DNA of 64,000 nt from an uncultured Bifidobacterium sp. (GCA_964577955.1 CAZOAZ010000013.1:48284-112283); one strand, 5' to 3'; positions 4,912-50,676 are shown, counted from the stretch's first letter. A program made the numbers and translations. The notes: a model not told the origin generated them from the letters alone.

Positions 4912-4943
4912 GGAGTTTTCCGGACGATGGTGAGATTTTCCCA
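4912..4943. promoter_or_regulatory. Tandem putative enhancer (UAS) boxes
   Basis: GGAGTTTTCC (4912) and GAGATTTTCC (4932), between divergent sigma54 sites. Confidence 0.55.
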
Positions 4944-4987
4944 ACCGCCGCAGCCGTCCCGGTCTCCAGCGGCGATCGGCGCGGCGT

Positions 4988-5001
4988 GGCGGATTTATTG
5001 C
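4988..5001 (+). promoter_or_regulatory. sigma54 -24/-12 element
   Basis: tGG-cggatttatt-GCa upstream of the ATG at 5035. Confidence 0.65.
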
Positions 5002-5034
5002 ACTGAGCCAGGACGCCTTCACCTGGAGATTCCC

Positions 5035-5418
5035 ATGATGAGTCCCGCGCCCTTCAGCTCAATCGGCGAGCTGCTCGAACGCAGCCTGAACATTCGTCAC
5101 GTCTATGGCGAGCCGGTGCATCGTGGCGACACGACAGTCGTGCCCGTCGCTCAGGTCGCCTACGTCTTCGGCGGTGGGGGCGGTCAGGCACCCGCTCGCG
5201 GGCACGGCCGCGTCGCGGATGCAGGTGCGGCAGACCAGGACGGACGGCGGGATGCGCAAGGGGCCGGCGGCGGTGGCGCGGTCCGCATGATGCCGGTCGG
5301 CGCCCTCGAAGTCGGACCGGAGGGCACTCGCTTCATTCACTTCCACCCGTTCAAGCCGCTGCTCGGCGCGGTAGCGGCCGGGCTCGTGGCCGGATGGCTG
5401 CTGGCGCGCCGCCGCTGA
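5035..5418 (+). CDS. GerW/YtfJ family protein
   Basis: RBS GGAG at 5025; VYGEPV...VVPVA, FGGGGG, GAGGGG...PVG and a C-terminal TM segment. Confidence 0.75.
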   Translation: MMSPAPFSSIGELLERSLNIRHVYGEPVHRGDTTVVPVAQVAYVFGGGGGQAPARGHGRVADAGAADQDGRRDAQGAGGGGAVRMMPVGALEVGPEGTRFIHFHPFKPLLGAVAAGLVAGWLLARRR

Positions 5419-5443
5419 CCGTCGCGAGCGACGAGCCCGCGGA

Positions 5444-5539
5444 CCGATCATCGCCGCCGAACGGTTCGGCACTCACGGGTGGATGCTCTGGAACCCGCGC
5501 AACGAGTACTCGGCGACTGATCTGGCGCCGCGCCACTGA
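5444..5539 (+). pseudogene. Orphan 3' fragment of a putative glycoside hydrolase (DUF4015-like) gene
   Basis: Translates IIAAERFGTHGWMLWNPRNEYSATDLAPRH*, resembling that family's C-terminal G-W-L-W-N motif; no start codon or upstream gene body. Confidence 0.45.
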
Positions 5540-5588
5540 CGACTTCGAGTGAATGGCCCGCCTGAAGTTCGTCCGGCCGTTCCAGCCG

Positions 5589-5754
5589 CTAGTGGCCTGT
5601 CCACGCTGAAGCAGTACCGATTGCCGGAGCGCGGCGCCCGGATCGCAAGGCGCGAAGAGCGAGCTTATTGGGCATAAGTGAGCGATGAGCAACGCCGCGA
5701 GGCGGGATGCCCCGCCCGGCAGGCGGTACTGCTTCAGCGTGGACAGGCCACTAG
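5589..5754. mobile_element. MITE (non-autonomous IS derivative)
   Basis: Perfect 31-bp terminal inverted repeats CTAGTGGCCTGTCCACGCTGAAGCAGTACCG (5589-5619 and 5724-5754), 104-bp non-coding core, CTAG at both ends. Confidence 0.8.
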
Positions 5755-6500
5755 TGCCGCCCAACCGGGTGGATCGGGACGGCCGGAACGCCGGCGTAGA
5801 TCTGCCCGCCCGCGAGCTCGGCATGCTTCGGGACAAAACTCAGGGCCCCGACTTGCGTATCGGGCCCGATCTCGACGCCGATCTCGATGACGCTGCTGAG
5901 TCCGATCGTGACGTTTCGACCGAGCCTTACCCGCGCGGTCTTCAGAAGACCGCCCTCCACGGTGTGTCCCGACAGATGCACCCCGCCGCCGATCACGACA
6001 TCGTCGCCGAATTCGAGCAGGTTGTAGTCGCTCACCGAGAGACTATTGATGTACACGCGCTTGCCCAGCCGCGCCCCTCCCAGGCGGACGTGAGCCGTCC
6101 AGATCGGTGTCCCGCGAAACAGTGATCCAGCGATGAACCTGACCAGATGGATCGACGCGCCGTACCGGACCCAGCGCAGGAGCGCCCAATCGAAGTCGGC
6201 GAGCCGCAGTTCAACGTTCACGGGCGTCTGCCACCCCACCAGCCGCCACGCAAGCGGCGCGATCAGCATCAGGCACACCGCAAAAAGCACGTAGGATGGG
6301 ACGATGGCAGCACTGCCCAGGACGGCCCCCATCCCCGGCCCCGTGACCGCCGGCATCAACAGCTGCCACAAGAGGACGACCGGCAGGATGGACACGGCGC
6401 ACACGACGACCTGGACGACGATCAACGTCGCGACCGTCCAGACGATGCGCCACGCGATCACGGCCGTTGACGCCCCTCGGGTTTCTCGCGGCTGCGACAT
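5751..6500 (-). CDS. Membrane-anchored hexapeptide-repeat (left-handed beta-helix) acyltransferase
   Basis: N-terminal TMs followed by LGKRVYI, FGDDVVIGGG, LGRNVTIG and IGPDTQVGA repeats. Confidence 0.75.
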   Translation of the reverse strand: MSQPRETRGASTAVIAWRIVWTVATLIVVQVVVCAVSILPVVLLWQLLMPAVTGPGMGAVLGSAAIVPSYVLFAVCLMLIAPLAWRLVGWQTPVNVELRLADFDWALLRWVRYGASIHLVRFIAGSLFRGTPIWTAHVRLGGARLGKRVYINSLSVSDYNLLEFGDDVVIGGGVHLSGHTVEGGLLKTARVRLGRNVTIGLSSVIEIGVEIGPDTQVGALSFVPKHAELAGGQIYAGVPAVPIHPVGRH

Positions 6501-6508
6501 GAGCCCCC

Positions 6509-12224: not shown

Positions 12225-12238
12225 GCGACGACCATTGA

Positions 12239-12252
12239 GCAATGCGCATGCC
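12239..12252 (-). promoter_or_regulatory. sigma54 -24/-12 element
   Basis: Minus strand cGG-catgcgcatt-GCt; 14 nt before the ATG at 12224. Confidence 0.7.
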
Positions 12253-12276
12253 GGACTGAGCTGCGCACGTCCGACC

Positions 12277-12933
12277 TCAGTACCACAACGAAATCATGAG
12301 TCGCGTGAGGAAGAAGTCGACGGCGATCACCGCGACTGAACCGGCGACGACGGCGCGCGTCGTGGACCGCCCGACGCCCTGCGTGCCGCCGGTTGTCTGG
12401 AGCCCGACATGACACGCGATGCTAGCGTCCGCGATGACCGTCAGCACCGGCGCCATCAGTGTTCCGGCCAGGATGCGTGGCAGGACCAGCTTGCGAATCG
12501 GATCCGTCCCGAGGACGCGCAAGGCGCTGATCTGACTGGTGACTTCCATTGAGCCCAGTTCGGCGGCGATCCCCGCGCCCGCGCGCCCGCACCGCATCAA
12601 ACCGGTCAACACCGGTCCCAGGTTCTTGACCATCGTGGCGCTTACCAGCCGGCCCACGACCGGCCGGGCGCCGTACGCATCGAGCGTGATGCCACTCTGC
12701 AACGCGAGCGCCGCGCCGGTGAAGAACGCCGTCAGCATGATCACGGTTAGTGTGCCCACACCAACCACGTCGAGCTGCTCGATCATGTTGCGGACGTACC
12801 AGCGTTTGAACAGGAGGGCCCGACACGCCGCCGACATCATCAAGCAGTAAGTTTGAACTTCGAGCGCGATCGCCTTGAGGGTCTCGTCGATCCGACGCAC
12901 ACGGAGACCTCGCGCTGGAACCGGCAGTGACAT
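12277..12933 (-). pseudogene. mlaE: MlaE-family ABC permease with an internal in-frame deletion
   Basis: GRAGAGIAAELGSM and ALRVLGTDPIRKLVLPRI; LTVIADA joins directly to SIACHVG, so roughly 40-45 aa are missing; no mlaF or mlaD nearby. Confidence 0.65.
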
Positions 12934-13013
12934 CGTCGGTTTACCTGAATCTGATCAGGAGCACGGCGGTTCGCCGCCGCTCGAGGTGGATTTCGCTCAT
13001 TGGCTGGGCATGG

Positions 13014-13027
13014 GCAACAGCGATACC
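13014..13027 (-). promoter_or_regulatory. sigma54 -24/-12 element
   Basis: Minus strand cGG-tatcgctgtt-GCc. Confidence 0.6.
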
Positions 13028-13083
13028 GACCCTCTCCGCTTCGCATGGCCTGTGTCCGCAACCCATCTTGCCGAATGGTCCAG

Positions 13084-13112
13084 GCAAATTTTCGCGGTCC
13101 TGGGGAATTCCC
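13084..13112. promoter_or_regulatory. Tandem putative enhancer (UAS) boxes
   Basis: GCAAATTTTC (13084) and GGGAATTCCC (13103), between divergent sigma54 sites. Confidence 0.55.
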
Positions 13113-13168
13113 CTCGATCATCCGCCGCTCACACTCGAGAACATGGAGATTGGCCGCCAGCCGAAGTG

Positions 13169-13182
13169 GGTACGCGGTTTGC
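13169..13182 (+). promoter_or_regulatory. sigma54 -24/-12 element for the hsp20 operon
   Basis: gGG-tacgcggttt-GCc. Confidence 0.6.
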
Positions 13183-13231
13183 CTTGCAGTTGTCGCGTCA
13201 TTACCCCTAGTCACTTCTGAGAGGAGTGGTC

Positions 13232-13744
13232 ATGTCCGAACAGAAAAAGACAGAACTGGTTCCCACTCGTGTCGCCCGCGATCCGTTTGCGCTCATGCGC
13301 CAGATGACCTCGGAGTTCGATCGGGTTCTCAGCGACTGGCCCGCGTTTCGATTCCCGACCCTCGGCGCCATGAAGGCCGACGGGCTCTGGGCACCCAAGA
13401 CCGACGTCTTCGAACGCGACGGCCGTCTCGTCACCCGCGTCGACCTGCCCGGCATGAAGAAAGAGGACATCCTCATCGAGGCCACGGACGGTCATCTGAC
13501 CCTGTCCGGCGAGCGTAAGTCGGATGTCGAGGAGAAGAAGGACGGCGTGTATCGCCGCGAGCGCGAATACGGCAGCTTCTCCCGCATGGTGCCGCTGCCG
13601 GAGGGCGTGAAGCTCGACGATATCAAGGCAACCTTCGCCGACGGCGTTCTCGAGGTGTCCGTCCCGTTGCCGGCGCAGCCCGCCAAGAACAGCCGGAAGG
13701 TTCAGATCGAGGACGCCAAGGCCAAGTCAAAGAGCGCGGCGTAG
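13232..13744 (+). CDS. Hsp20 / alpha-crystallin small heat-shock protein
   Basis: RBS GAGGAG; DLPGMKKEDI, LSGERK, ERxYGSFSRMVPLP and FADGVLEV. Confidence 0.93.
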   Translation: MSEQKKTELVPTRVARDPFALMRQMTSEFDRVLSDWPAFRFPTLGAMKADGLWAPKTDVFERDGRLVTRVDLPGMKKEDILIEATDGHLTLSGERKSDVEEKKDGVYRREREYGSFSRMVPLPEGVKLDDIKATFADGVLEVSVPLPAQPAKNSRKVQIEDAKAKSKSAA

Positions 13745-13753
13745 GAGGCTGCC

Positions 13754-14215
13754 ATGAAGGTCAAGGACATCATGACGGTCGAGCCGCGGACCTGCGGCCC
13801 GGACACGAATCTGGCGGCCGCCGCGGCGCTCATGCTCGACGCTGACTGCGGGATGCTGCCGGTCGTGATCGGCGGCAAGCTCGCGGGCGTCGTCACCGAT
13901 CGCGACCTCTACATCGCTCTGGCGACGCGGAACCAGCGGCCGTCGGATCTGAGCATCGGCGACGTGATGCAGACGCCGCTCCACACCTGCGGACCGGACG
14001 ACGACGTGGAGATGGCGCTGGCCACGATGAAGCAGCATCGCGTGCGCCGGCTGCCGGTCGAGGGCTTCGGCGGCACGGTGATCGGGGTCCTTTCGCTCAA
14101 CGACATCGCCAGGGCGGCGGGCAGCAAGAGAGGCATCACGAGCGCCGAGTTGATCGGCACGCTGCAGGCCATCTCACACCAGCACCGGCCGGTTCCGCAC
14201 GTCGCCTCCGTCTAG
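13754..14215 (+). CDS. CBS domain pair protein
   Basis: MKVKDIMT, GMLPVV, GVVTDRD and VRRLPV. Confidence 0.9.
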   Translation: MKVKDIMTVEPRTCGPDTNLAAAAALMLDADCGMLPVVIGGKLAGVVTDRDLYIALATRNQRPSDLSIGDVMQTPLHTCGPDDDVEMALATMKQHRVRRLPVEGFGGTVIGVLSLNDIARAAGSKRGITSAELIGTLQAISHQHRPVPHVASV

Positions 14216-14393
14216 GCCACCAGCGCCGCCGCCCGTCGCCGACGCTCGGGCCGATCGGTGGCGGCGTCAACCAGCCCGCGACGCGTTGCTCGATGCCCTG
14301 ACCGCCGCGCAGTTTCTGATGCGGACCGCCCGCGGCGCCTTCGTGCACTACCGCGGCGAGTCGTAGCCAACAACCCGGAACGGCGGGAGCATC

Positions 14394-15002
14394 ATGGATC
14401 GTCAGCAATACACGCTCAGTGCACTCGACGCGATCTTCACGCGCCGATCGGTTCGCGCCTACACCGGTGAACGGATCGACGCCGCGACCGTTCGATCGCT
14501 GCTCGACGCGGCGGTGCAGGCCCCGACCGCCATGCACGGCGAGCCCTGGGCGTTCATCGTGATCCAGAACGCCGAGACGCTGAAACGGATTTCGGATCGG
14601 GCGAAAGGGCATTGGGCGACGGAGGCGGCCCGCTATCGGGATCTTCATCCCGCCGCCGCCGGATCACTGCAGGGCGGATTTGCCGCGCGCTTCGCGGCGC
14701 CAGACTTTTCGATCTTCTACGATGCGGGAACGCTGATCGCGATCTGCGCCAAGACCACCGGCCCGTTCGTCGCCGCCGACTGCTGGCTCGCGGCCGAGAA
14801 CCTGATGCTCGCCGCGGCGGCACTGGGACTGGGCACCTGCTGTATCGGCTCCGCGGTCCCGGCCCTGAACAGCGCCGACACCCGGACGGAGCTATCGCTG
14901 GCGGCCGGCCTCGAGGTCATCGCGCCAATCGTGGTTGGCGTCGCGCGCGAGCCAGGGCAAGCGTCCGGCCGGAACGACCCAGAGATCGTCTGCTGGCAAT
15001 GA
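14394..15002 (+). CDS. Nitroreductase family protein
   Basis: IFTRRSVRAY, APTAMHGEPWAF and ENLMLAAAALGLGTC. Confidence 0.88.
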   Translation: MDRQQYTLSALDAIFTRRSVRAYTGERIDAATVRSLLDAAVQAPTAMHGEPWAFIVIQNAETLKRISDRAKGHWATEAARYRDLHPAAAGSLQGGFAARFAAPDFSIFYDAGTLIAICAKTTGPFVAADCWLAAENLMLAAAALGLGTCCIGSAVPALNSADTRTELSLAAGLEVIAPIVVGVAREPGQASGRNDPEIVCWQ

Positions 15003-15014
15003 ACGGCCACGAGC

Positions 15015-16826
<1,812 letters not shown>

Positions 16827-17194: not shown

Positions 17195-17267
17195 GTTTCA
17201 TTTCTCCTTGAAAACCCCACACTCCACTGAAACCGCAAACCAAGCCATTCGCCAAGAGCGCGCGAGT

Positions 17268-17281
17268 GGCACTCCGGTTGC
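17268..17281 (+). promoter_or_regulatory. sigma54 -24/-12 element for csbD
   Basis: TGGCAC-tccgg-TTGCT, a near-perfect consensus match. Confidence 0.8.
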
Positions 17282-17348
17282 TCTACAGCACGACAAGTGA
17301 CGCCATCAACACCACAGACGTTCCAGTCTGATCTTGGAGGAGAGCACC

Positions 17349-20040: not shown

Positions 20041-20906
20041 TTCTTCCCACCCGGCTTGACGGCTTTCGGCAGTTCGCGGGCGCGCTCCTTCGGGGTGCGC
20101 GGCTTGGCCTTGTGTGGGTCGAATGGCTTCGACGGGGGCACAAGCTTCGGAACCACCTTCGGCGGCCGCTTCGTCCAGGCACGCTTCCACGGCGTGCTCT
20201 TGATGATGATCGTACGGGTCGGCCAGACCACGCGTGTCGAGCCCCAGCCCCAGGGAACCGCCCACACGCCCAGACCGACGCCGTAGCCGCAGTAGACCGC
20301 ACTCGCTGGCACGAAGTCGCCACCAGGGACCGGCGGCACAAACAGGATCCTCGGATCGTAGTGCGGCACGACGATGAACCAGGGATCGGCAGGCACGATC
20401 TCGACGTAAGGGCCGAGGCGCACGACCACCGGCCTGCACGATCGGAGATAGCCGAAGTCGTTTGCCCGACGGCGGACACGCTGCACCGCGTCCATCACCT
20501 CCTCGGGCTGCGCCAGAAACGCGTCGCCTAACTGCTCGGTCCATGACAGGTCGGATGCCATGCGCTCCAGCACCGACGGGAACGGCAGTAACGCCTGGAC
20601 GCTCTGATCCCACGGCAGATGATCGGCGGTGATCGCGTCGGTCAGACGACGGCCACGCAGATAGTGATGATCATCGGCCCAGCGAAAGGCGTCGGGGATA
20701 TCGTCGGCGAATGTCGCCGCGGCCAACACCTGCGCGAGCAGCGGGTCAGGATAGAGCGCGATCGGCGCCACTATCCGTTCGAGTTCGACGAACGAAAAAG
20801 ATGGCGGCACGTCCTGCGCCGCACCTGATCTCGCCCATCCCCACAGACTCAACACCGCCGCGACGGCCACCAACTGTGGCGCGTAGGCGATCTTCTTCGC
20901 TCTCAT
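20037..20906 (-). CDS. DUF3300 domain protein with Pro/Lys-rich tail
   Basis: LERIVAPIALYPDPLLAQVL and LGDAFLAQPEEVMDAVQR; signal peptide. Confidence 0.85.
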   Translation of the reverse strand: MRAKKIAYAPQLVAVAAVLSLWGWARSGAAQDVPPSFSFVELERIVAPIALYPDPLLAQVLAAATFADDIPDAFRWADDHHYLRGRRLTDAITADHLPWDQSVQALLPFPSVLERMASDLSWTEQLGDAFLAQPEEVMDAVQRVRRRANDFGYLRSCRPVVVRLGPYVEIVPADPWFIVVPHYDPRILFVPPVPGGDFVPASAVYCGYGVGLGVWAVPWGWGSTRVVWPTRTIIIKSTPWKRAWTKRPPKVVPKLVPPSKPFDPHKAKPRTPKERARELPKAVKPGGKK

Positions 20907-21523: not shown

Positions 21524-21537
21524 GTGTTCGACGAGGG

Positions 21538-21551
21538 GCAACACTCGTGCC
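21538..21551 (-). promoter_or_regulatory. sigma54 -24/-12 element for the ppsA operon
   Basis: Minus strand cGGCACG-agtg-TTGCc. Confidence 0.75.
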
Positions 21552-21605
21552 GCTCCTGGCCGGGTGACCGTGGGCGCCACACCGCCCCGGTCAGCGATCA
21601 TCGAC

Positions 21606-21643: not shown

Positions 21644-21684
21644 TCCGCGGCGATGGCCGGCTCGCGGCGCCCGCGGATCGCGCT

Positions 21685-21698
21685 GGCATCGCGGTTGC
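21685..21698 (+). promoter_or_regulatory. sigma54 -24/-12 element
   Basis: TGGCAT-cgcgg-TTGCc upstream of the BON gene. Confidence 0.75.
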
Positions 21699-21742
21699 CT
21701 TCTCCGGGGTATCAACCAGCCGCGAATCGGGGAGGACGACTC

Positions 21743-28306: not shown

Positions 28307-28331
28307 GTTCGTCCTCCGAGCCGGCCTCAGG

Positions 28332-28345
28332 GCAACTGTCGTGCC
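28332..28345 (-). promoter_or_regulatory. sigma54 -24/-12 element
   Basis: Minus strand cGGCACG-acag-TTGCc. Confidence 0.75.
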
Positions 28346-28444
28346 GTCCCGGGGCGGCGCCGGCGGCCCACCCTCGCCCGCCGCAATCAGAGCGTTTCGG
28401 TTTCCAGCGGGCCATTGAGCTTGAATTGGGGACCCGCGCCGCGC

Positions 28445-28478
28445 GGGAAATGCCGCACCGCAGCCGGAGATTTCCGCA
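28445..28478. promoter_or_regulatory. Tandem putative enhancer (UAS) boxes
   Basis: GGGAAATGCCGCA (28445) and GGAGATTTCCGCA (28466); nearly identical to 32683-32716. Confidence 0.7.
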
Positions 28479-29079: not shown

Positions 29080-29190
29080 CGTGCCTCCCATGACCGCCAA
29101 CCCGCGGATTCCAGCCACCCCATCAAATTGGGGGCCACCCGCGCGACGCCTTTCGCCGGGCAGACTCCCGTCCGAACCCCTGCCGGGCCG

Positions 29191-29220
29191 GGGGATTTTC
29201 CGTCCGGTCCAGGGAAAGTC
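29191..29220. promoter_or_regulatory. Tandem putative enhancer (UAS) boxes
   Basis: GGGATTTTCC (29191) and GGGAAAGTCC (29211). Confidence 0.6.
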
Positions 29221-29264
29221 CGCGCGGCCATCATCCGGGTCGCTGCCTGTGCGACCCGGCGATC

Positions 29265-29278
29265 GGCATGGCGGTTGC
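29265..29278 (+). promoter_or_regulatory. sigma54 -24/-12 element
   Basis: cGGCAT-ggcgg-TTGCc; 14 nt before the GTG at 29293. Confidence 0.7.
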
Positions 29279-29292
29279 CCTGGTTTCCGGCT

Positions 29293-32621: not shown

Positions 32622-32682
32622 CGTCGGAGCGGAACCCGGCAACGACGACGCGGTGTCTCAGGACCCGTCGTCATGCCACCGC

Positions 32683-32716
32683 GGGAAATGCCGCATCGCC
32701 GCCGGAGTTTTCCGCA
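32683..32716. promoter_or_regulatory. Tandem putative enhancer (UAS) boxes
   Basis: GGGAAATGCCGCA (32683) and GGAGTTTTCCGCA (32704), 21-bp period. Confidence 0.7.
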
Positions 32717-32777
32717 ATCCGTTCCTCCCGACGCCGTTTCCGGCGCGAAAACAGGCGGTTCCTGGCCAGGCCGGTTG

Positions 32778-32791
32778 GGCATTGCTCTTGC
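32778..32791 (+). promoter_or_regulatory. sigma54 -24/-12 element for the BON-ABC-groEL operon
   Basis: gGGCAT-tgctc-TTGCc. Confidence 0.7.
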
Positions 32792-32843
32792 CCTCCAGCG
32801 AGACGAGGTTCGTGACACGACTTCGTCAATCAAGGAGAAACCG

Positions 32844-34338: not shown

Positions 34339-34359
34339 CCGATACGCGGAGACATTCAC

Positions 34360-35985: not shown

Positions 35986-36005
35986 GGGGCTGACAGGCCC
36001 CTTTT
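35985..36005 (+). terminator. Short GC hairpin plus U-run after groL
   Basis: AGGGGC-tgacag-GCCCCT-TTT. Confidence 0.35.
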
Positions 36006-36017
36006 CAGGAGACGACG

Positions 36018-37076
36018 ATGATGTTCCGACCAGGACCGGCCGCTCGGTGCGGCATGCTGATGTTGGCGGCGATGCTCCTTGACGCCCCCGCGGCAAAGGC
36101 TCAGACCACCAGGCAGCCGGAGTTGAAAACGCTCAAGGCCGACTTCGTGCCCGGCGAGAGGACGATCTTCTTCGACGACTTCAGCGACATGGGCGCCGAC
36201 GACGCGCCGCCGCATTTCAAGTCGCGCGGTGCGGCACCGGAGCTCCGCGCCGGCGACGGCATCAAGCAGCTGACCATCGTTCAGGGGAACACGTTAACCC
36301 CAAACCTGACGGCACTCCCTCCCAACTTCACTTTCGAGAGCGACGTGAAGTTCGACACGCCAAAGGGTCTCGGTCGCATCTTCGTCTCCCTGTTCTCCAA
36401 GAACCGCGAGGCCGTCACCTGGATGTTGTCCGTGCGCGCGACCGGCATCGACACGACGCTGGCGCAGAAGCTGCCGAAATATCAAGAGCTGGCCCGCAAG
36501 ACCGGCATCAAGGTTCCCCTCGCCGAACCAGCCGCGTTGGCCTGGTGGATTCAGGATGGACGGTTGCGCCTCTTCATCAACGGGGAGCGCCATGTCGACG
36601 TCAATCAAGTCGAATTGCCGCCGATCGATCGCGTCGAGATCAAGACCGATATCGTCGGCGCGGGAACCACGGTCGGATTTCGGCGCGTCCGGTTTGCCGA
36701 GTCGGCGCCTGATGTCAGCGCGTCGATCAACGCCGCGGGCCGCTATGTCTCGCACGGGATCACGTTCGACACCGACAGCGACCGGTTGAAGCCCGAATCG
36801 GCGGCATCCGTGCAAGCGGTCGCGAAGGCGCTGGAGTTGAATCCCAACCTCCGGCTGCGCATCGAAGGACACACCGACGCCCTCGGCGACGCGACGCACA
36901 ATCTCAACTTGTCGACACGCCGCGCCGAAGCGGTGAAGGCCGTGCTGGTCGGGCAGTTCGGTGTCGATTCATCCCGCTTGACCGCGACGGGCCTGGGCGC
37001 CACCAAGCCGGCCGACTCGAACGACACGCCGGCGGGACGAGCCCAGAATCGGCGGGTCGAATTCGTCCGCCAATAG
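36018..37076 (+). CDS. OmpA-family (C-terminal peptidoglycan-binding) protein
   Basis: DFVPGERTIFFDDF N-terminus; IEGHTD, LSTRRAEAV and NRRVEF. Confidence 0.88.
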   Translation: MMFRPGPAARCGMLMLAAMLLDAPAAKAQTTRQPELKTLKADFVPGERTIFFDDFSDMGADDAPPHFKSRGAAPELRAGDGIKQLTIVQGNTLTPNLTALPPNFTFESDVKFDTPKGLGRIFVSLFSKNREAVTWMLSVRATGIDTTLAQKLPKYQELARKTGIKVPLAEPAALAWWIQDGRLRLFINGERHVDVNQVELPPIDRVEIKTDIVGAGTTVGFRRVRFAESAPDVSASINAAGRYVSHGITFDTDSDRLKPESAASVQAVAKALELNPNLRLRIEGHTDALGDATHNLNLSTRRAEAVKAVLVGQFGVDSSRLTATGLGATKPADSNDTPAGRAQNRRVEFVRQ

Positions 37077-37105
37077 CCGACGATGCCACCTCGCCCACGG
37101 AACGG

Positions 37106-38104
37106 ATGATGCGGGCCCACTCGATTGCACGCTCCACGTTCGCGGTCGTGGCCACGGCGGCCGCGGTCGGCCTGCTGCTGGTGCAGTGTGGCAAGGGGCC
37201 CACCGAACCGAGCGTCACGCCGCCGCCGGCGGCGGCGACCGTGCCTGCTTCGGCTCCGGGGCCGGTGATCGCCCTGCCGAGTCCGCCGGTGCTGTTCTCC
37301 GGCGCCGGCGACATCGCCAATTGCTCGGTGCCTGGCACGAACCACGAGGGCACCGCGCGCATCCTTGAAGGGATCGGCGGCCGCATCTTCACGCTGGGAG
37401 ACAATGCCTACCCGCGTGGCCAGCGCGAGGACTTTCAGAATTGCTATGACGCCAGCTGGGGCCGGCCCTCGCTGCGGCTCCGGACGTACCCCTCGCCGGG
37501 CAATCACGACTACGGTGATACGGTCCGCCACGAGGCGGCGCCGTACTACAACTACTTCGACAATGCCGGACCCGCGGGCCTTGGCTACTACTCATACGAC
37601 TGGGGCGATTGGCACATCATCTCGCTGAACAGCAACTTTTACGGCACGAGGCCCAACGCCGGCGAGCCCGGCGCGGCGCAGATGTCGTGGCTGTTCCAGG
37701 ATCTGCAGGCCAGTCACGCCAAGTGCACACTCGCCTACTGGCATCATCCGGCATTCTCATCCGGACAGAACGGACCGAGCGTCGGCATGCGTCCCGTCTT
37801 CCGGCTCCTGTATGAAGCGGGCGCGGACGTCGTCCTGAACGGTCACGATCATCTGTACGAACGGTTCGACCCACAGAATTCCGAGGGGCAGCCCGACGCC
37901 GCACGTGGCATCCGGCAGTTCATCGTCGGGACCGGAGGCACGCTGCCATTGTCGCCGGTGGTCAACCTCGCGTTGAACAGTCAGGTCCGCCGCACAGGCA
38001 TGTTCGGCATCTTGAAGATGACGCTCAGCGCCGAGTCGTATTCGTGGGAATTCATCACCGTCGACCACGGCGTTCAGGACAGCGGATCGGCAACGTGCCA
38101 CTAA
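37106..38104 (+). CDS. Calcineurin-like metallophosphoesterase, exported
   Basis: AGDIA, LGDNAY, PGNHDY and NGHDH motifs. Confidence 0.88.
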   Translation: MMRAHSIARSTFAVVATAAAVGLLLVQCGKGPTEPSVTPPPAAATVPASAPGPVIALPSPPVLFSGAGDIANCSVPGTNHEGTARILEGIGGRIFTLGDNAYPRGQREDFQNCYDASWGRPSLRLRTYPSPGNHDYGDTVRHEAAPYYNYFDNAGPAGLGYYSYDWGDWHIISLNSNFYGTRPNAGEPGAAQMSWLFQDLQASHAKCTLAYWHHPAFSSGQNGPSVGMRPVFRLLYEAGADVVLNGHDHLYERFDPQNSEGQPDAARGIRQFIVGTGGTLPLSPVVNLALNSQVRRTGMFGILKMTLSAESYSWEFITVDHGVQDSGSATCH

Positions 38105-38123
38105 TGATCGGATCGAGGTAGCC

Positions 38124-38750
38124 ATGGCATATCCAGTCTCCGTGGACGTCGTGCCGCAGGTGGAGCAGCGAAACCGTCTGACGACGGCCTTCCGCCTCAT
38201 CCTGGCGATTCCCCACGTCATCCTCGTCGGGGGGATCGGCATCGGGCTCTCATACCGACGTGAGAACACCAGCATGTTGGGGGGCGAAGCCGGTCTGCTC
38301 GGAGCCGTCGCGACGTTCATGGCGATCGTCAGCTGGTTCACGATCCTGATCGCGGGGCTGCACATCACCGGGATCCGTCAGTTCACCACGTTCTACATGC
38401 GCTGGCGGGTCCGCGCGCTGGCGTATCTGATGCTCCTCGTCGATCCCTATCCGCCGTTTGGCGACATGCCGTATCCGGCATCGATCGATATCGTGGATCC
38501 GATCGGCCCGCGCGACCGCCTGACGGTCGCTGTCCGATTCTTCCTCGCCATCCCGCACTTCATCGTGCTCGCCTTCGTTCTGCTGGCATGGGGCGTCACG
38601 ACCATCGTGGCGTGGTTCGCGATTCTCTTCATGGGTACGTATCCCCAAGGCCTCTATCAGTTCGGTGTCGGCGTCCTCAGGTGGCGGCTTCGCGTCGAGT
38701 CGTATCTGCTGCTCCTCGTCGACGACTACCCACCGTTTTCGCTGTCGTAG
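38124..38750 (+). CDS. DUF4389 domain membrane protein
   Basis: Two repeats R(N/D)RLT.A.R..LAIPH...YPPF. Confidence 0.88.
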   Translation: MAYPVSVDVVPQVEQRNRLTTAFRLILAIPHVILVGGIGIGLSYRRENTSMLGGEAGLLGAVATFMAIVSWFTILIAGLHITGIRQFTTFYMRWRVRALAYLMLLVDPYPPFGDMPYPASIDIVDPIGPRDRLTVAVRFFLAIPHFIVLAFVLLAWGVTTIVAWFAILFMGTYPQGLYQFGVGVLRWRLRVESYLLLLVDDYPPFSLS

Positions 38751-41096: not shown

Positions 41097-41498
41097 TCAG
41101 TGACTGTTCGGCGGCGCGCTTCTGGCGAGGTGAGACTGCTGGACGAGGGCTGGCAGGTCGGCCATGTCGATCGGCTTGCTCAGGACGCGAAAGGCCCCCA
41201 GGCGCTCTGCTTCGGCAATCATTTCCGGGGTGCTGAAGGCGGTCATCATGATCACGGCGGTCTGCGGCTGCGTCCGGCGAATGGTCTCGAGCAGCTTGAG
41301 ATCCTTCGAGTCAGGCATCCGGAAGTCCAGAAGCACGACGTCGGGGGCCCCGCCGCGCGACAGCACCTGCATGGTCTGCTTGGCGCTCCCCGCCTCTTCG
41401 ACCTCGTGACCGGCGCCGCTCAGCGTCTCCGCCAGCGACCATCGAATCAGCGGCTCATCGTCGACGATCAGAATACGAAGCACTGCGAGTTTCTCCAC
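41097..41498 (-). CDS. Single-domain response regulator (receiver only)
   Basis: ILIVDDE, VLLDFRMP, MMTAF and LSKP. Confidence 0.88.
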   Translation of the reverse strand: MEKLAVLRILIVDDEPLIRWSLAETLSGAGHEVEEAGSAKQTMQVLSRGGAPDVVLLDFRMPDSKDLKLLETIRRTQPQTAVIMMTAFSTPEMIAEAERLGAFRVLSKPIDMADLPALVQQSHLARSAPPNSH

Positions 41499-41516
41499 CC
41501 CGTCGGGGAAATTTGC
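41487..41516. promoter_or_regulatory. Tandem putative enhancer boxes overlapping the response regulator start
   Basis: GAGTTTCTCC (41487) and GGAAATTTGC (41507). Confidence 0.45.
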
Positions 41517-41631
41517 TCATCCGCTGCCGGACCTCCGCTCGCTGAACGGACGAATGCAAGGTACGCCTTGACACAATCAAGATCGAGGCCAACTTTTCAA
41601 CGCCCGGCGTCGTACCCGAGGCAGGAACACG

Positions 41632-43470
41632 TCAGGACAACGGCAACTCGATGACGACGGCCGTGCCGCCGGATGGCGGGCATTCAATCGCAATCGTTCC
41701 GCCATGGGCCTCGATGACGCGCTTCGCCGTTGACAGCCCCAGACCTGTGCCTCGCGCCTTGGTCGTGAAGAAGGGCGTGAAGATCTGCTGGAGGACCTTC
41801 GCTGGAATGCCGGGACCAGTGTCGGTCACGACGATCCGGCTGTGGCCTCGGGCTTCGGCCAGCGAAATCCGGATCGCCCCATCGCCTTCCATGGCGTGAG
41901 CCGCGTTCACGAGGAGATTGACGAACACGATCTTCAGCAGTTCGGGATCGGCCATGGTGGCATTGGCCGAACCCGATATTTCGACGCGTATGCCGGCCGC
42001 TTCGGGATCCTGGCCGAGAAGATTCGCCGTGGTCGTGACCAGCTGTCCGATGTCGACCGGCACCTTGCGCGGCTGCGGCGGTCGCGCGAACAAAAGCAGA
42101 TCCTTCATCAACGCGTTCAGGCCGTCGATGCGCGCGATGATGTCCTGGGTCACGCTGGCATCCCGGCTGCCCACCGGGAGACGCGAGCCGATCACCTGAA
42201 TCGCACCGCGGATCCCGGCCAGCGGATTCTTCACTTCGTGCGCGATCACGGCGGCCATCTCGCCGAGCCGGACCATCGCGGCCTGCTCGCGGAGCTGCCC
42301 CTCCAGACGGACCCGGCCGGACAGATCGTGGATGATGCCGGTGAACTTGCGCTCGCCGCTCGAGAGCATCTCGCCGACGGACAAATGGACGGGAAAGGTT
42401 GTCCCATCCCGCTTCTGCGCCACGACTTCGCGGCCGATGCCGATGATGCGGGCTTGCCCGGTGGCCAGGTAGCGCGCCATGTAGGAGTCGTGCTCCTCAC
42501 GATACGGCGACGGCATGAGCAGCTTGACGTTGCGGCCGATGACTTCCACCTCCGTGTAGCCGAACAGCCGCTCGGCGGCCGGATTGAAGGCGTCGATGAG
42601 CCCGAAGGCGTCGATCACGATGATCGCGTCGACGGCTGAATCAATGATCGATCGCCACCGCGCTTCGCTGGCGCGCGTCCGCTCCTCGAGCGCCACCCGT
42701 GCGCTCAGGTCGTGAAGGATGCCGATGAACTTGCGTTCATGGCCGACCGCCATTTCACCGACCGAGAGATGAAGCGGAAACGTGGTGCCATCCTTGCGGC
42801 TCCCGACGACCTCGCGCCCGCTCCCGATGATCTTCCGCTCGCCCGTCCTCATATAGGCGGCGAGATACCCGTCGTGTTCTTCGCGGTACGGCGACGGCAT
42901 GATCGCCGTGACGTTCCGGCCGACCAGTTCGCCTTCGCGATAGCCGAACAGACGCTCCGCGGCGGGATTGAACGCTTCGATCACCCCTTTCGCGTCGATA
43001 ACGACGATGCCGTCAACCGCCGCGTCGACGATCGCGCGCCAGCGCTGCTCGCTGGTCTTGAAGGCGAGTTGGGCGCGTTTCTCCGCGGTGATGTTTCTGG
43101 CGATGGTCGCCGCGCCGAGCACCCGGCCGTCGCGGTCGGTGACCGGCGAGACCGTGAGGGACACGTCGACCAGCCGCCCGTCCTTGGTTCGTCTCACGGT
43201 TTCGCGCGACTCAATCCGGCGGCCGGCGCGCACTTCTTCGAAGATCTCGTCGAGTTCGGTCGGCCGGTCGTCAGGAATCAGCAAGGCGATCGAGCGGCCG
43301 CGGACTTCCTTCGCCGTATAGCCATACAGGCGCTCAGCGCCGCGATTCCAGGTGACGATGATCCCCTCGAGCGTCTTGCCGATGATGGCATCGTCCGAGG
43401 ACTCGACGATGGCGGCGAGATAGCGGTCGGGATCGCCGGCCGGATCGAAAAACGAGGGCTTCTCGCTCAT
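41632..43470 (-). CDS. Cytoplasmic FixL-like histidine kinase with three PAS domains (two heme-type)
   Basis: No TM helices. PAS2 and PAS3 each have REEHD.Y...Y..TG...IIG.GR..V...DGTTFP.HLSVGEM; H-box AHEVKNPL; ATPase motifs NAAHA, DTGPG and GTGLGL. Confidence 0.9.
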   Translation of the reverse strand: MSEKPSFFDPAGDPDRYLAAIVESSDDAIIGKTLEGIIVTWNRGAERLYGYTAKEVRGRSIALLIPDDRPTELDEIFEEVRAGRRIESRETVRRTKDGRLVDVSLTVSPVTDRDGRVLGAATIARNITAEKRAQLAFKTSEQRWRAIVDAAVDGIVVIDAKGVIEAFNPAAERLFGYREGELVGRNVTAIMPSPYREEHDGYLAAYMRTGERKIIGSGREVVGSRKDGTTFPLHLSVGEMAVGHERKFIGILHDLSARVALEERTRASEARWRSIIDSAVDAIIVIDAFGLIDAFNPAAERLFGYTEVEVIGRNVKLLMPSPYREEHDSYMARYLATGQARIIGIGREVVAQKRDGTTFPVHLSVGEMLSSGERKFTGIIHDLSGRVRLEGQLREQAAMVRLGEMAAVIAHEVKNPLAGIRGAIQVIGSRLPVGSRDASVTQDIIARIDGLNALMKDLLLFARPPQPRKVPVDIGQLVTTTANLLGQDPEAAGIRVEISGSANATMADPELLKIVFVNLLVNAAHAMEGDGAIRISLAEARGHSRIVVTDTGPGIPAKVLQQIFTPFFTTKARGTGLGLSTAKRVIEAHGGTIAIECPPSGGTAVVIELPLS

Positions 43471-43586: not shown

Positions 43587-44960
43587 ATGGCATCAGGAAC
43601 GATTCTCGTCGTCGACGACGAGCAACTCATTCGGTGGTCGCTGTCGAGTCGATTGACCGAGGAGGGCTATCGGGTCGTCGAAGCGGCCAACGCCGCTGAC
43701 GCGTTGAAGGCAGCGCGCGAAGGAGTTGATCTCGTCCTCTTGGACTACCACCTCCCGGACGCCGACGGTCTGACGGTGTTGAAACAGATCAAGGAGACGA
43801 TGCCGGAAACGCTCGTCATCATGCTCACGGCCGATTCCACGGTGAGTACGGCCGTCCTCGCGATGCGCGCCGGCGCCTTCCACTACGCCAACAAGCCGTT
43901 CAATCTGGACGAGATCGTGCTGCTCGTCGAGAAGGCGCTCGAAACCACCACCCTGCGTCGCGAAGTGCGCTCCCTTCGCGCCTCGCAGGCGCAACCCTAC
44001 ACCTTGGATCGGATCGTCGGCACCGACGACGCCGTCGTCAAGATGCGGGCGCTGCTGAAGAAGGTCGCGACCGGTCCCGGATCGACCGTGCTCCTGACCG
44101 GCGAAAGCGGCACCGGCAAGGATCTCGCGGCCAAGGTGATCCACTACGCGAGCCCGCGAGCGAGCAAGCCATTCATGAACATCACCTGCTCGGCGCTGCC
44201 GGAAAATCTGCTCGAGAGCGAGCTCTTCGGCCACGAGCGCGGCGCCTTTACGGGCGCCGACCGTCAGAAGAAGGGGCTCCTGGAGTCCGCGGACGGCGGC
44301 ACGGTGTTCCTGGACGAGATCGGCGAAATGGTACCGCTCCTCCAGGCCAAGCTGCTGCGCTTTCTGGAGGAGCGCGCCTTCAAGCGGGTGGGCGGGTCGA
44401 CCGACATCCGGGTCGACGTGCGCGTCATTGCCGCCACCAACCGCAACCTCGAAGAAGAGGTCCGCAAGGGGCACTTCCGGTCTGACCTGTTTTACCGACT
44501 GAACGTCGTGCCGATCGTCCTGCCGCCGCTTCGCCAGCGGCCCAAAGACATCCCGCGCCTGGTGAACTTCTACGTCGATCTCTACAACGGCGAATTCCGC
44601 AAGCGCATTCAGCGCGTCACACCGGCGGCGATGGAGCGCCTGAGCGGCTACGGCTGGCCCGGCAACATCCGCGAACTCCGCAACGCCGTCGAGCGCGCCG
44701 TGCTGCTCGCGGAAGGCGACGAGCTTTCGCCCGACGACTTCGCAGTACGCGGCGGCGGTAGCGGCGCCGCCGTCGATGCGGTAGAACTGCCGGCCACTGG
44801 CGTCGACCTCGAGCAGTGGGAGCGATCGTTCGTGGTGCAGGCACTCGAGCGCAGCGGCTGGAATCAGACCAAAGCGGCCGGTCTTCTCGGGTTGAACCGC
44901 GATCAGATTCGCTACCGGATCGAGAAGTTCAAACTCGAAAAGCCAGCGGCAACGAGTTAG
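43587..44960 (+). CDS. sigma54-dependent enhancer-binding response regulator (NtrC/AtoC family)
   Basis: Receiver domain, GESGTGKD, ESELFGHERGAFTGA, FLDEIGEM, WPGNIREL and a C-terminal Fis-type HTH. Confidence 0.95.
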   Translation: MASGTILVVDDEQLIRWSLSSRLTEEGYRVVEAANAADALKAAREGVDLVLLDYHLPDADGLTVLKQIKETMPETLVIMLTADSTVSTAVLAMRAGAFHYANKPFNLDEIVLLVEKALETTTLRREVRSLRASQAQPYTLDRIVGTDDAVVKMRALLKKVATGPGSTVLLTGESGTGKDLAAKVIHYASPRASKPFMNITCSALPENLLESELFGHERGAFTGADRQKKGLLESADGGTVFLDEIGEMVPLLQAKLLRFLEERAFKRVGGSTDIRVDVRVIAATNRNLEEEVRKGHFRSDLFYRLNVVPIVLPPLRQRPKDIPRLVNFYVDLYNGEFRKRIQRVTPAAMERLSGYGWPGNIRELRNAVERAVLLAEGDELSPDDFAVRGGGSGAAVDAVELPATGVDLEQWERSFVVQALERSGWNQTKAAGLLGLNRDQIRYRIEKFKLEKPAATS

Positions 44961-48949: not shown

Positions 48950-48952
48950 GCG

Positions 48953-49222
48953 TCAGTTCCGCGTCAAGTCCGCGCGAACGTAGCGGCCGGTGTGGGTACA
49001 GCACAGGAAACCGCAGCTGACCAACTGATCCAGAAGCGCATGCGCATCGGGTGAGCGGAGCTGCCAGAGGCGCTCGACCTGTGGCTGCGTCAAGGAGAGT
49101 CCCGGCATTTCACCGTACTCGGCGCGAACGATTCGGCTCCAGTCGCCGACGCCGCGAGGGGAACCTGGCCCGTTCGACTCGCGTGCGTTCTGATCCACTG
49201 TGACGTTGAGTGTGTTCGCCAT
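48953..49222 (-). CDS. Small hypothetical protein with a winged-helix-like motif
   Basis: VRAEYGEMPGLSLT..Q..RLW...LLDQLV..GFL...GRYVRA. Confidence 0.7.
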   Translation of the reverse strand: MANTLNVTVDQNARESNGPGSPRGVGDWSRIVRAEYGEMPGLSLTQPQVERLWQLRSPDAHALLDQLVSCGFLCCTHTGRYVRADLTRN

Positions 49223-49249
49223 AAGAGTGCTCCTGCCGCCCCTCTGACG

Positions 49250-49263
49250 GCAAGAACAGTACC
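49250..49263 (-). promoter_or_regulatory. sigma54 -24/-12 element for the wHTH-usp-mgtA-osmC operon
   Basis: Minus strand cGG-tactgttctt-GCc. Confidence 0.6.
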
Positions 49264-49317
49264 GCTTCGACTGTCGCCAATCCCCGCTGTTGTCCGACGC
49301 ATGCCACTCGCGGCTGC

Positions 49318-49348
49318 GGAATTGTTCCCGTCGACAGTGGAATCTTCC
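49318..49348. promoter_or_regulatory. Tandem putative enhancer (UAS) boxes
   Basis: GGAATTGTTCC (49318) and GGAATCTTCC (49339), between divergent sigma54 sites. Confidence 0.6.
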
Positions 49349-49405
49349 AGGGGGACAGTGACCGCACACCAGCTCAGATTCCCCGACCGGGGTGCGATGA
49401 CATTC

Positions 49406-49419
49406 GGCACAACCGTTGC
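49406..49419 (+). promoter_or_regulatory. sigma54 -24/-12 element
   Basis: cGGCAC-aaccg-TTGCc. Confidence 0.75.
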
Positions 49420-49474
49420 CTCATGGGCCACCAACGACTTCGTCATCAATCGCCACCATCTTCAGGAGGAACCA

Positions 49475-49768
49475 ATGACCGAGAAAGCCTGCAACTGGGA
49501 ATCGTTCAAGGCCGAGGGCGCCAGCATCATGGACAAGATCAAGGCGCTCGTCCGCGAAGGCAACGTTCGACGTGTCGTCATCGAGCATGACGGGCGGACG
49601 ATCGCCGAATTTCCGCTGACGGTGGGCGTCGTCGGTGCGGTGCTCGCACCGCCGGTCGCGGCCATCGCCGCCGTCGTCGCGCTGTACAAGGAATGCACGA
49701 TCCACGTCGAGCGCACCGAGCCGGCCGCGGCCGATCCGGCGGCTCCGAAGGCCTCCGCGGCGCGCTAG
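49475..49768 (+). CDS. DUF4342 domain protein
   Basis: RBS AGGAGG; KIKALVREGNVRRVVI...EFPLTVGV. Confidence 0.85.
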   Translation: MTEKACNWESFKAEGASIMDKIKALVREGNVRRVVIEHDGRTIAEFPLTVGVVGAVLAPPVAAIAAVVALYKECTIHVERTEPAAADPAAPKASAAR

Positions 49769-49781
49769 GAGGCGTGGCCCT

Positions 49782-50459
49782 GTGCGGAGGACGCTACTCG
49801 TCTGCGGCCTTCTCTCGTCGCTGCTCTACGCCGCGATGTGCGTGTTCGTCGCGAGGCAGTGGGAGGACTACAGCTCAATCTCGCAGACCGTGAGCGAACT
49901 CTCGGCCATCGACGCGCCGACACGTGGCATTTGGGTGCCGCTTGGCTGCGTCTACGCCCTTCTGACCATCGCCTTCGGATGGGGCGTGTTCCGGTCGGCG
50001 GGGCAAAGCCGTGCGCTGCGCGTCGCCGGCGGTCTGCTCGTCGCCTACGGCGTCGTCTGCGCGACATGGCCGCCGATGCATTTGCGCGAGGTGCTGGCAG
50101 CCGGCGGCGCGACGCTGACCGACACAATGCACCTCGTCTACGCCGCCGCGGCGGTGTTGCTGATGCTGCTCGCCATGGGATTCGGCGCCGCCGGGCTCGG
50201 CCGGCGCTTCGGCCTCTACTCCATCGCCACCATGGTGCTGCTCGCCTTGTTCGGCGGCTTGACCAGCCTGGAGGCTCCGGGCGTCGACGCGGGTCTACCC
50301 ACGCCGTGGATCGGGCTCTGGGAACGGATCAACATCGGCGTGTTCTTGCTGTGGGTGGTGGTGCTGGCCACGACGCTCCTGCGTACGCCGACATCTTTAG
50401 ACTCCCGCGCCTCGGCGCGCCGCTCATGGGCACTGTTGTCGCCGCTGAACCAGAAGTGA
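49782..50459 (+). CDS. DUF998 domain membrane protein
   Basis: YSSISQTVSELSA, TDTMHL and GLWERINIG. Confidence 0.8.
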   Translation: MRRTLLVCGLLSSLLYAAMCVFVARQWEDYSSISQTVSELSAIDAPTRGIWVPLGCVYALLTIAFGWGVFRSAGQSRALRVAGGLLVAYGVVCATWPPMHLREVLAAGGATLTDTMHLVYAAAAVLLMLLAMGFGAAGLGRRFGLYSIATMVLLALFGGLTSLEAPGVDAGLPTPWIGLWERINIGVFLLWVVVLATTLLRTPTSLDSRASARRSWALLSPLNQK

Positions 50460-50650
50460 GCCCATTGCGGGCGGGACCTTCGTTGGCGCGTCGGCGACCG
50501 CGGCGTCTCCTCATCGCGGCGCCGCCAGTCTTGCTGACAAGCATGTACGCCGCGTTTCACGTCCTCGTATGGCCGTTCGGCCTGCGTCTCGGCTACTTCA
50601 CCGGCACGTTTTTCCCGATTCTTCGCGGGCCCTCGCAGATAGCGGAATAA
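50456..50650 (+). pseudogene. Short hydrophobic ORF, possibly the 5' remnant of a membrane protein gene
   Basis: GTG overlaps the DUF998 stop (GTGA); 64 aa with hydrophobic LLTSMYAAFHVLVWPFGLRLGYF, ending at the next enhancer boxes. Confidence 0.3.
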
Positions 50651-50676
50651 CTCCCACCCGCACGAAAACTTTCGCA
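50644..50676. promoter_or_regulatory. Tandem putative enhancer boxes (degenerate)
   Basis: GGAATAACTCC (50644) and GAAAACTTTCGCA (50664). Confidence 0.4.

Follow-up and report, generated by a model that had tools for sequence, protein, structure and literature searches.

A 64,000-nucleotide stretch of DNA deposited as an uncultured Bifidobacterium sp. (GCA_964577955.1 CAZOAZ010000013.1:48284-112283; referred to in its entirety as the window) carries nine pairs of palindromic boxes between positions 4909 and 50676. Judging from their geometry and from comparison with related genomes, these paired boxes are probably the upstream activating sequences (enhancers) of one sigma-54 regulon. The protein most likely to bind them, on the same comparative grounds, is the bacterial enhancer-binding protein (bEBP) encoded at 43587-44960. 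The window has a G+C content of 66%, and the nearest relatives of its bEBP come from metagenome-assembled genomes of Acidobacteriota/Vicinamibacterales (61-74% identity). We take the source to be a soil acidobacterium. Genes were called with a codon-usage model trained on the window, several starts being corrected by hand, and the encoded proteins were annotated with Pfam and NCBIfam. Three regulator genes sit in the middle of an island of stress genes:

43587..44960, plus strand: response-regulator bEBP with a receiver, an AAA+ module with GAFTGA and a Fis-type helix-turn-helix (HTH); proposed binder of the boxes.
41632..43470, minus strand: soluble histidine kinase with three PAS domains, the third a FixL-type haem-PAS; proposed oxygen sensor.
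41097..41498, minus strand: single-domain response regulator, its gene lying downstream of that for the kinase.

The boxes are 16-bp palindromes with the consensus TGCGGAAATTTCCGCA and the core GGrAAwTTyCC; this consensus of 14 window boxes is identical to the idealised site proposed in an earlier reading of the DNA (the sequence-only reading), and all nine pairs listed there are present. The pairing of the boxes stands as well, while the period given for it, 20-21 bp, does not: the measured spacing is 19-21 bp, which places the two boxes of a pair on the same helix face. An expectation-maximisation (EM) motif search with no box seeding, run on ten intergenic stretches between promoters, converged on GGGAAATTTCCC / CGGGGAAATTTCCCCG at widths of 12, 14 and 16, with the palindrome constraint on or off. 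Its top sites were exactly the boxes noted before. A first run, with coding sequence included in the input, locked onto codon periodicity, and purely intergenic input was used instead.

Pairs were scored with leave-one-out position weight matrices (PWMs), the tested region being excluded from training and two near-identical copies being excluded together. For each tandem pair with a spacing of 19-22 bp, at most one of 63,003 background positions scored as high. Nine pairs with this spacing were found in the window, compared with 0 at the control spacings of 26-29 and 31-34 bp. Several pairs contain a weaker box (13100, 29209, 41484 and 21627, the last being a 17-bp variant). The copies at 28442 and 32680, described earlier as almost identical, indeed share 37 of 40 bases, and their similarity ends at the edges of the pair. 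Exact-pattern counts (GGANNTTTCC, TTTCCGCA) were too rare to inform, and a high-scoring lone box at 17524 was rejected, as it overlaps the csbD terminator hairpin and has no partner. What carries the signal is the complete 16-bp palindrome together with its pairing, its position and its conservation.

Eight of the pairs lie 57-114 bp upstream of putative sigma-54 promoters of the form YGGCAY-N5-TTGCC/T. Promoters were located by scanning for TGGCAC-N5-TTGCW with at least 9 of 11 positions matching, complemented by inspection. Twelve of the 17 consensus matches are intergenic or 5' (~10% of the sequence) and correctly oriented; these promoters stand 30-70 bp before start codons with Shine-Dalgarno sequences, and show the features of -24/-12 elements, with GG and GC 10 bp apart, facing the gene and near its start. 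The pairs (predicted enhancers) and the promoters assigned to them are given below, with distances measured from the pair midpoint to the first -24 base:

4909-4924 and 4928-4943: tandem boxes, spacing 19 bp, between divergent promoters; leave-one-out score 25.3, beaten by 0 of 63,003 background positions.
4852..4867, minus strand: sigma-54 promoter TGGTCTGGCCTTTGCT of the ABC exporter gene 2978-4837 (ABC_membrane and ABC_tran); midpoint 59 bp upstream.
4987..5002, plus strand: sigma-54 promoter TGGCGGATTTATTGCA of the YtfJ/GerW-like gene 5035-5418; midpoint 61 bp upstream.
13081..13116: tandem boxes (13081 and 13101, spacing 20 bp); leave-one-out score 20.1, beaten by 0 background positions.
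13013..13028, minus strand: sigma-54 promoter CGGTATCGCTGTTGCC of the MlaE gene 12277-12933 and downstream genes; midpoint 70.5 bp upstream.
13168..13183, plus strand: sigma-54 promoter GGGTACGCGGTTTGCC of Hsp20, CBS protein, nitroreductase and FtsH genes (13226-16826); midpoint 69.5 bp upstream.
21606-21621 and 21627-21643: tandem boxes, the second being the 17-bp variant.
21537..21552, minus strand: sigma-54 promoter CGGCACGAGTGTTGCC of gene 20903-21523, followed by pyruvate phosphate dikinase / PEP synthase; midpoint 72 bp upstream.
21684..21699, plus strand: sigma-54 promoter TGGCATCGCGGTTGCC of BON-domain and HAD-family protein genes; midpoint 60 bp upstream.
28442..28478: tandem boxes, near-identical to the copy at 32680.
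28331..28346, minus strand: sigma-54 promoter CGGCACGACAGTTGCC of a cytochrome c'-like gene, universal stress protein (USP) genes and alcohol dehydrogenase (24049-28288); midpoint 114 bp upstream.
29189..29224: tandem boxes (29189 strong, 29209 weak), intergenic after correction of the gene call.
29264..29279, plus strand: sigma-54 promoter CGGCATGGCGGTTGCC of alpha/beta hydrolase, DegP and DUF6064 genes; midpoint 57.5 bp upstream.
29122..29137, minus strand: variant sigma-54-like promoter TGGCCCCCAATTTGAT, with -12 TTGAT, of the conserved gene 28480-29079; midpoint 69.5 bp upstream.
32680..32716: tandem boxes.
32777..32792, plus strand: sigma-54 promoter GGGCATTGCTCTTGCC of BON x3, ABC ATPase, GroEL, OmpA, phosphoesterase and DUF4389 (32844-38750); midpoint 79 bp upstream.
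49315..49351: tandem boxes.
49249..49264, minus strand: sigma-54 promoter CGGTACTGTTCTTGCC of the small protein gene 48953-49222, two USP genes, P-type ATPase and OsmC; midpoint 69 bp upstream.
49405..49420, plus strand: sigma-54 promoter CGGCACAACCGTTGCC of DUF4342 (start corrected to 49475) and DUF998 genes; midpoint 72 bp upstream.
50641..50676: tandem boxes.
50729..50744, plus strand: sigma-54 promoter CGGCACGACGTCTGCT of a cytochrome c gene (start corrected to 50791) and downstream genes; midpoint 70.5 bp upstream.

The midpoints keep to discrete distances from the -24 element (~59, 70, 79 or 114 bp in the window). Relative to the transcription start, they fall at about -84 to -140, within the ~70-150 bp upstream where such activating sequences are expected, and the sites consist of at least two dyad-symmetric elements on the same helix face, both in the window and in 80 other genomes. 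Four pairs stand between divergent promoters, and the GG-to-GG distances claimed for these in the sequence-only reading proved exact: 122 bp for 4867(-)/4987(+), 142 bp for 13028(-)/13168(+), 134 bp for 21552(-)/21684(+) and 143 bp for 49264(-)/49405(+). We add a fifth divergent unit, in which the 29189 pair would serve the 29264(+) and the variant 29137(-) elements. Judged by position, a central pair can serve two divergent promoters in five units within 45 kb, and the distances between divergent promoters are sums of two of the allowed enhancer-promoter classes described below.

The same arrangement recurs in other genomes. Six orthologous loci (123 kb), in which the neighbourhood of kinase, bEBP, USP, BON, ATPase, pyruvate phosphate dikinase and Hsp20 genes is kept, contain 17 tandem pairs, and a pair stands at the expected distance from 9 of the 13 strong sigma-54 promoters in these loci (p = 1e-5). 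A further 80 loci (854 kb), fetched by the HTH region of the activator alone and nearly all from Vicinamibacterales/Acidobacteriota, hold 165 tandem pairs (0.19 per kb), against 4 in 397 kb (0.010 per kb) in a control set of 26 GC-matched loci around other bEBPs; in these controls pairs are not enriched at promoters. Two of the 26 control loci, L020 and L022, are from Vicinamibacterales, and they have 0 pairs. Among 74 strong promoters in the 80 loci, 69% exceed the 95th background percentile for the pair score (p = 1e-24), and a fresh de novo search on the upstream regions of these loci returned the same palindrome, CGGGGAAATTTCCCCG.

In the relatives, boxes are spaced by 19 bp (41 cases), 20 bp (30), 21 bp (18) or 22 bp (9), with almost no other spacing up to 70 bp. 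Enhancer-promoter distances fall into classes of ~59, 70, 79, 91 and 102 bp, separated by empty gaps, and follow a periodicity of 10.7-11 bp (Rayleigh R = 0.61 at 10.75-11 bp, n = 61); the distances in the window fit these classes. The notion that the boxes arose by chance or from base composition, or that they are what is left of a repeated mobile element, could draw on the window-wide frequency of their core (see below) and on the two copies of near-identical sequence. It is effectively refuted by the leave-one-out ranks, by the empty control spacings, by the sharply spaced and phased pairs that recur in 86 independent loci, and by the fact that the similarity of the two copies stops at the box edges.

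Target genes recur as well, including those for USP, BON, P-type ATPase, Hsp20, pyruvate phosphate dikinase and cytochrome c'. Elsewhere, the targets met most often are USP genes and a gene for a 74-residue NifU/Nfu-like protein that immediately follows the bEBP gene. The latter is found ~150-400 bp after the bEBP gene in L084, L085, L093, L095, L113, L120, L128 and others, preceded by a box pair and a sigma-54 promoter; a convergent OsmC gene takes its place in the window. The protein is called NifU/Nfu-like by the motif ...GxCxxCPSAxMTL... in its sequence.

The proposed activator is the sole bEBP in the window, encoded close to its candidate sites. It possesses the Pfam domains Response_reg, Sigma54_activat and HTH_8, intact Walker A and Walker B motifs, and GAFTGA from residue 219. 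None of the named bEBP equivalogs in NCBIfam (AtoC, NtrC, ZraR and others) passes its cut-off, the best being AtoC with 456 bits against 714. The recognition helix LNRDQIRYRIEKF is common to the six orthologues. Pairs crowd the bEBP gene: a locus has on average 0.33 pairs in the 500 bp that follow this gene, and 0.49 directly ahead of the receiver gene that precedes it. An Anaerolineales locus (L008) encodes a bEBP with 48% identity overall and a similar helix, SRDQLRYRLEKY, which is its sole feature in common with the window; directly after that bEBP gene come a near-perfect pair TGTGCAAATTTCCCCACGCTGCGGGAAATTCCCCA, a promoter TGGCACGAGTCTTGCT and a kinase gene, an arrangement implying that the module exists outside Acidobacteriota. 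The complete order at 171-6238 of this locus is an open reading frame (ORF) with an RpoN-like C-terminus (recognised by eye), the bEBP gene, the pair, the sigma-54 promoter and a gene for a large membrane histidine kinase.

The sequence-only reading had taken the boxes for the binding site of the 43587-44960 activator, and the comparison lends support to this assignment, as the protein is the sole candidate in the window and the motif follows its helix. We regard it as unlikely that the boxes are enhancers bound by another activator, whether a same-helix paralogue encoded outside the window or an unrelated bEBP. Such a paralogue could be the binder, since some related genomes hold two paralogous bEBPs with the same recognition helix: in L004 and in L005 two such genes lie side by side and their HTHs are almost the same, a further bEBP is encoded downstream in L001, and the source genome is visible for 64 kb only. 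However, the window has its single bEBP gene at the centre of the island, the motif tracks the HTH through 86 loci and as far as another phylum, and the pairs cluster directly beside the bEBP gene.

Besides these paralogues, several findings count against one regulon controlled from the boxes. The 10-bp core GGAANNTTCC, allowing at most one mismatch, occurs at chance level over the window (16 times, against 16.7 expected). Only 67 of 187 pairs in the related loci have a recognisable outward promoter 30-200 bp away, and another 37 lie downstream of a promoter, at a response-regulator gene. Five good sigma-54 promoters of the window have no tandem pair, namely 17267-17282(+), 12238-12253(-), 30519-30534(+), 57977-57992(-) and 61767-61782(-). 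One of these, the csbD promoter at 17267, matches the consensus perfectly (TGGCACTCCGGTTGCT) and yet lacks a pair, and the promoter at 57992 has a lone box, GCGGAATTCCGG, ~25 bp upstream; at these five promoters either an enhancer acts at a distance or other activators are involved. The oxygen signal discussed below rests on homology of one of three PAS domains. Finally, the support as a whole is comparative, and binding and expression are predicted.

The ninth pair is located at the start of the response-regulator gene, together with a variant promoter:

41484..41519: tandem boxes at the 5' end of the single-domain response-regulator gene, overlapping its ribosome-binding site and first codons.
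41576..41591, minus strand: variant sigma-54-like element TGGCCTCGATCTTGAT, upstream of the response-regulator gene 41097-41498.

This pair (41484/41504) is not upstream of a promoter, lying instead ~90 bp downstream of the element TGGCCTCGATCTTGAT. Pairs at the response-regulator start recur in 37 other loci (among L082-L157), with a spacing of nearly always 19 bp and a position 70-118 bp downstream of the variant promoter; similar placements are seen in L001 (9960) and L002 (11483). The variant element has a -12 of TTGA(A/T) instead of TTGC (TGGCnnGnnnnTTGAA), with two cases in the window (41576-41591(-) and 29122-29137(-)), and is kept in 33 of the 37 related loci as against ~0.65 expected by chance. 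Phasing of the pair below this promoter was considered and dropped, the distances of 110-118 bp being too spread for such a claim. We hypothesize that the response-regulator pair may mediate autoregulation, either by activation from downstream or by repression.

A conserved pair that overlaps a translation start downstream of a promoter resembles an operator, and the centre of the box is AT-rich in a genome of 66% G+C. Both features would suit boxes that bind a non-activator (a repressor or a nucleoid protein) or that act as bent AT-rich DNA aiding looping. We consider this very improbable, because the conserved positions include the GC-rich arms as well as the centre, and because strict pairing at 19-22 bp and phasing to -24/-12 elements are traits of bEBP enhancers. 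In addition, a sigma-54 promoter depends on an activator site, and between the divergent promoters the boxes are the only conserved element. The function as enhancers remains the preferred explanation for the boxes.

The sensor kinase hints at the signal to which the regulon may respond. Its residues 261-395 align with FixL haem domains (PDB 8js5, 1d06, 1dp6; E = 1e-41 to 1e-39), and the haem-pocket residues that define a haem-PAS are kept, including the proximal His (EEHDSY) and both Arg (ARY, IGIGRE). NCBIfam FixL is the best match for the kinase with 418 bits, below the cut-off of 850. A haem-PAS domain is encoded no more than 6 kb from the bEBP gene in 41 of the 80 relatives. In FixL, bound oxygen inhibits the kinase. 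By analogy, a FixL-type haem-PAS with conserved ligands makes low oxygen the probable signal and, since oxygen switches the FixL kinase off, induction under low oxygen the likely logic. The gene content of the island, which is like that of known low-oxygen regulons (see below), agrees with this.

We propose the following mechanism. A dimer of the 43587-44960 bEBP would bind each box through its Fis-type HTH, and phosphorylation by the 41632-43470 kinase would cause an AAA+ ring to assemble on two adjacent dimers. A short DNA loop, working only with enhancer and promoter on the right helix faces, would then allow the GAFTGA loops to remodel the closed sigma-54 complex. If the analogy with FixL holds, the regulon would be switched on when oxygen falls, leading to expression of ~45 genes between 3 and 54 kb, among them those for USPs, Hsp20, BON, CBS, nitroreductase, FtsH, GroEL, DegP, pyruvate phosphate dikinase, P-type ATPase, OsmC and cytochromes. 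The outcome would be a programme of dormancy or low-oxygen survival.

The stress island itself (positions 3-54 kb) encodes chaperones and proteases (Hsp20, GroEL, FtsH, DegP), stress proteins (5 USPs, 2 BON-domain proteins, CsbD, OsmC) and metabolic enzymes and related proteins (CBS protein, nitroreductase, pyruvate phosphate dikinase / PEP synthase, HAD-family protein, alcohol dehydrogenase, ADP-forming acetyl-CoA synthetase/acetyltransferase). Membrane and envelope functions are represented by a P-type ATPase, ABC and Mla transport components, OmpA, an L,D-transpeptidase and several cytochromes. Five conserved regulon genes have no Pfam/NCBIfam match: 28480-29079 (-), 48953-49222 (-), 20903-21523 (-), 25573-26247 (-) and 52208-53119 (+). 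Homologues of the 28480, 48953 and 25573 genes recur across related loci, those of the first in 8 of the 80. An uncalled gap of 637 bp (20266-20902) separates the pyruvate phosphate dikinase gene from gene 20903; the long minus-strand ORFs 17596-20613 and 20037-20906 cover it, and the gene boundaries there are uncertain. No Rfam families or tRNAs were found in the window, and rpoN is not within its 64 kb.

Beyond the island, a respiratory cluster (58100-63915) encodes cytochrome c, a multihaem cytochrome, cytochrome b, a Rieske protein and haem-copper oxidase subunits I and II; a moderate sigma-54 match at 61782 precedes the Rieske gene. A 58-nt inverted repeat with arms at 5589-5646 and 5697-5754 (81% complementary, 50 nt between them, CTAG at both ends) sits between convergent genes and has no Rfam match. 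It may represent a miniature mobile element, or else a structured RNA.

Vicinamibacteria (Acidobacteria subdivision 6) rank with the most abundant bacteria of soil, and we know of no work on their gene regulation. The mechanism proposed above is standard, so no new one is revealed; the motif, the regulon and the lineage are not previously described. The regulon is concrete, comprising a sensor, an activator, a motif with its PWM, ~14 promoters and ~45 genes in one island; the system recurs in at least 86 genomes and suggests how these organisms survive fluctuations of soil oxygen. Its spacing and phasing rules provide unusually clean natural data on the helix-face needs of short-range sigma-54 enhancers. 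A broader proposal, which we consider evenly balanced between right and wrong, is that Vicinamibacterales possess an order-wide low-oxygen dormancy programme, in which a FixL-type haem kinase is wired to a sigma-54 activator in place of FixJ. Its enhancer geometry would be quantised (box spacing of 19-22 bp, steps of ~10.7 bp, one enhancer for two promoters), and there would be a second, conserved mode for autoregulation, with the pair at the beginning of the regulator operon, below a promoter whose -12 is the variant TTGAA.

In the literature searched we found no description of this motif, which the sequence-only reading had likewise not recognised as a described one, nor of an acidobacterial sigma-54 stress regulon; searching with sequence strings yielded nothing but primers and NF-kappaB sites. 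Of the characterised systems, NmpRSTU of Myxococcus xanthus is the closest (PMC11841059). There, a haem sensor acts through an NtrC-like bEBP on two palindromes upstream of sigma-54 promoters in hypoxia, controlling 7 promoters and 23 genes, including CBS-domain, USP and P-type ATPase/cbb3 oxidase genes, and the system is autoregulated (PMC11841059). The window shares with it the putative haem-based sensor, the NtrC-like bEBP, the tandem palindromes, the sigma-54 promoters and the CBS, USP and P-type ATPase genes. However, the motif differs: the NmpR site is GCGCA-N5-TGCGC with 14-15 bp between sites (PMC11841059), and its occurrences in the window with at most one mismatch are at chance level (12 against 15.7 expected) and all coding, never intergenic; the NmpR motif was rejected for the window. 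The Myxococcus sensor is a globin-coupled kinase signalling via a hybrid-kinase relay, whereas neither a globin nor a hybrid kinase is present among the annotated genes of the window; the two systems also belong to different phyla.

Rhizobial FixL-FixJ offers a parallel for the sensor, as the third PAS domain of the window kinase is ~55% identical to FixL haem domains and is followed by HisKA/HATPase. Unlike FixL, the window kinase has two extra N-terminal PAS domains, and the regulators encoded beside it are a sigma-54 activator and a single-domain receiver rather than a LuxR/NarL-type FixJ.

For the promoter arrangement, precedents exist in Escherichia coli, where activator sites lie between the promoters of zraP-zraS and of hycA-hypA. 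Divergent sigma-54 promoters are documented for hycA-hypA (FhlA) and zraP-zraSR (ZraR) (coordinates in PMC4591121), and likewise for the orp and type III secretion system operons of Desulfovibrio (PMC4641369). The likeness is in divergent sigma-54 promoters ~130-155 bp apart whose activator sites lie in the interval; the motif and the activator are different, and here five such units occur within 45 kb.

In gene content, the island resembles low-oxygen regulons with another kind of control. The DosR dormancy regulon of Mycobacterium (DosS/DosT-DosR), induced by low oxygen, comprises multiple USPs, Hsp20/alpha-crystallin, nitroreductase and like genes. The lxa locus of Burkholderia cenocepacia contains stress genes induced by low oxygen through an FNR/Anr-like box, TGA-N6-TCA (PMC3721108). 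Common to these systems and the window are multiple USPs, Hsp20, nitroreductase, CBS protein and FtsH-type protease genes, as well as those for P-type ATPase, alcohol dehydrogenase and acetyl-CoA synthetase-like proteins. Control of the lxa type was rejected for the window despite the similar gene content, FNR boxes being absent from its intergenic regions: no FNR/Anr-type box (TTGAT-N4-ATCAA) is centred in a promoter region, 18 of 19 matches being coding and 1 straddling the 5' end of a TrkA gene. Both known systems use sigma-70-type promoters, with NarL-type DosR or an FNR/Anr-like box, whereas the promoters here are of the sigma-54 type. The order-wide programme, if true, would be the sigma-54 counterpart of the DosR and lxa regulons.

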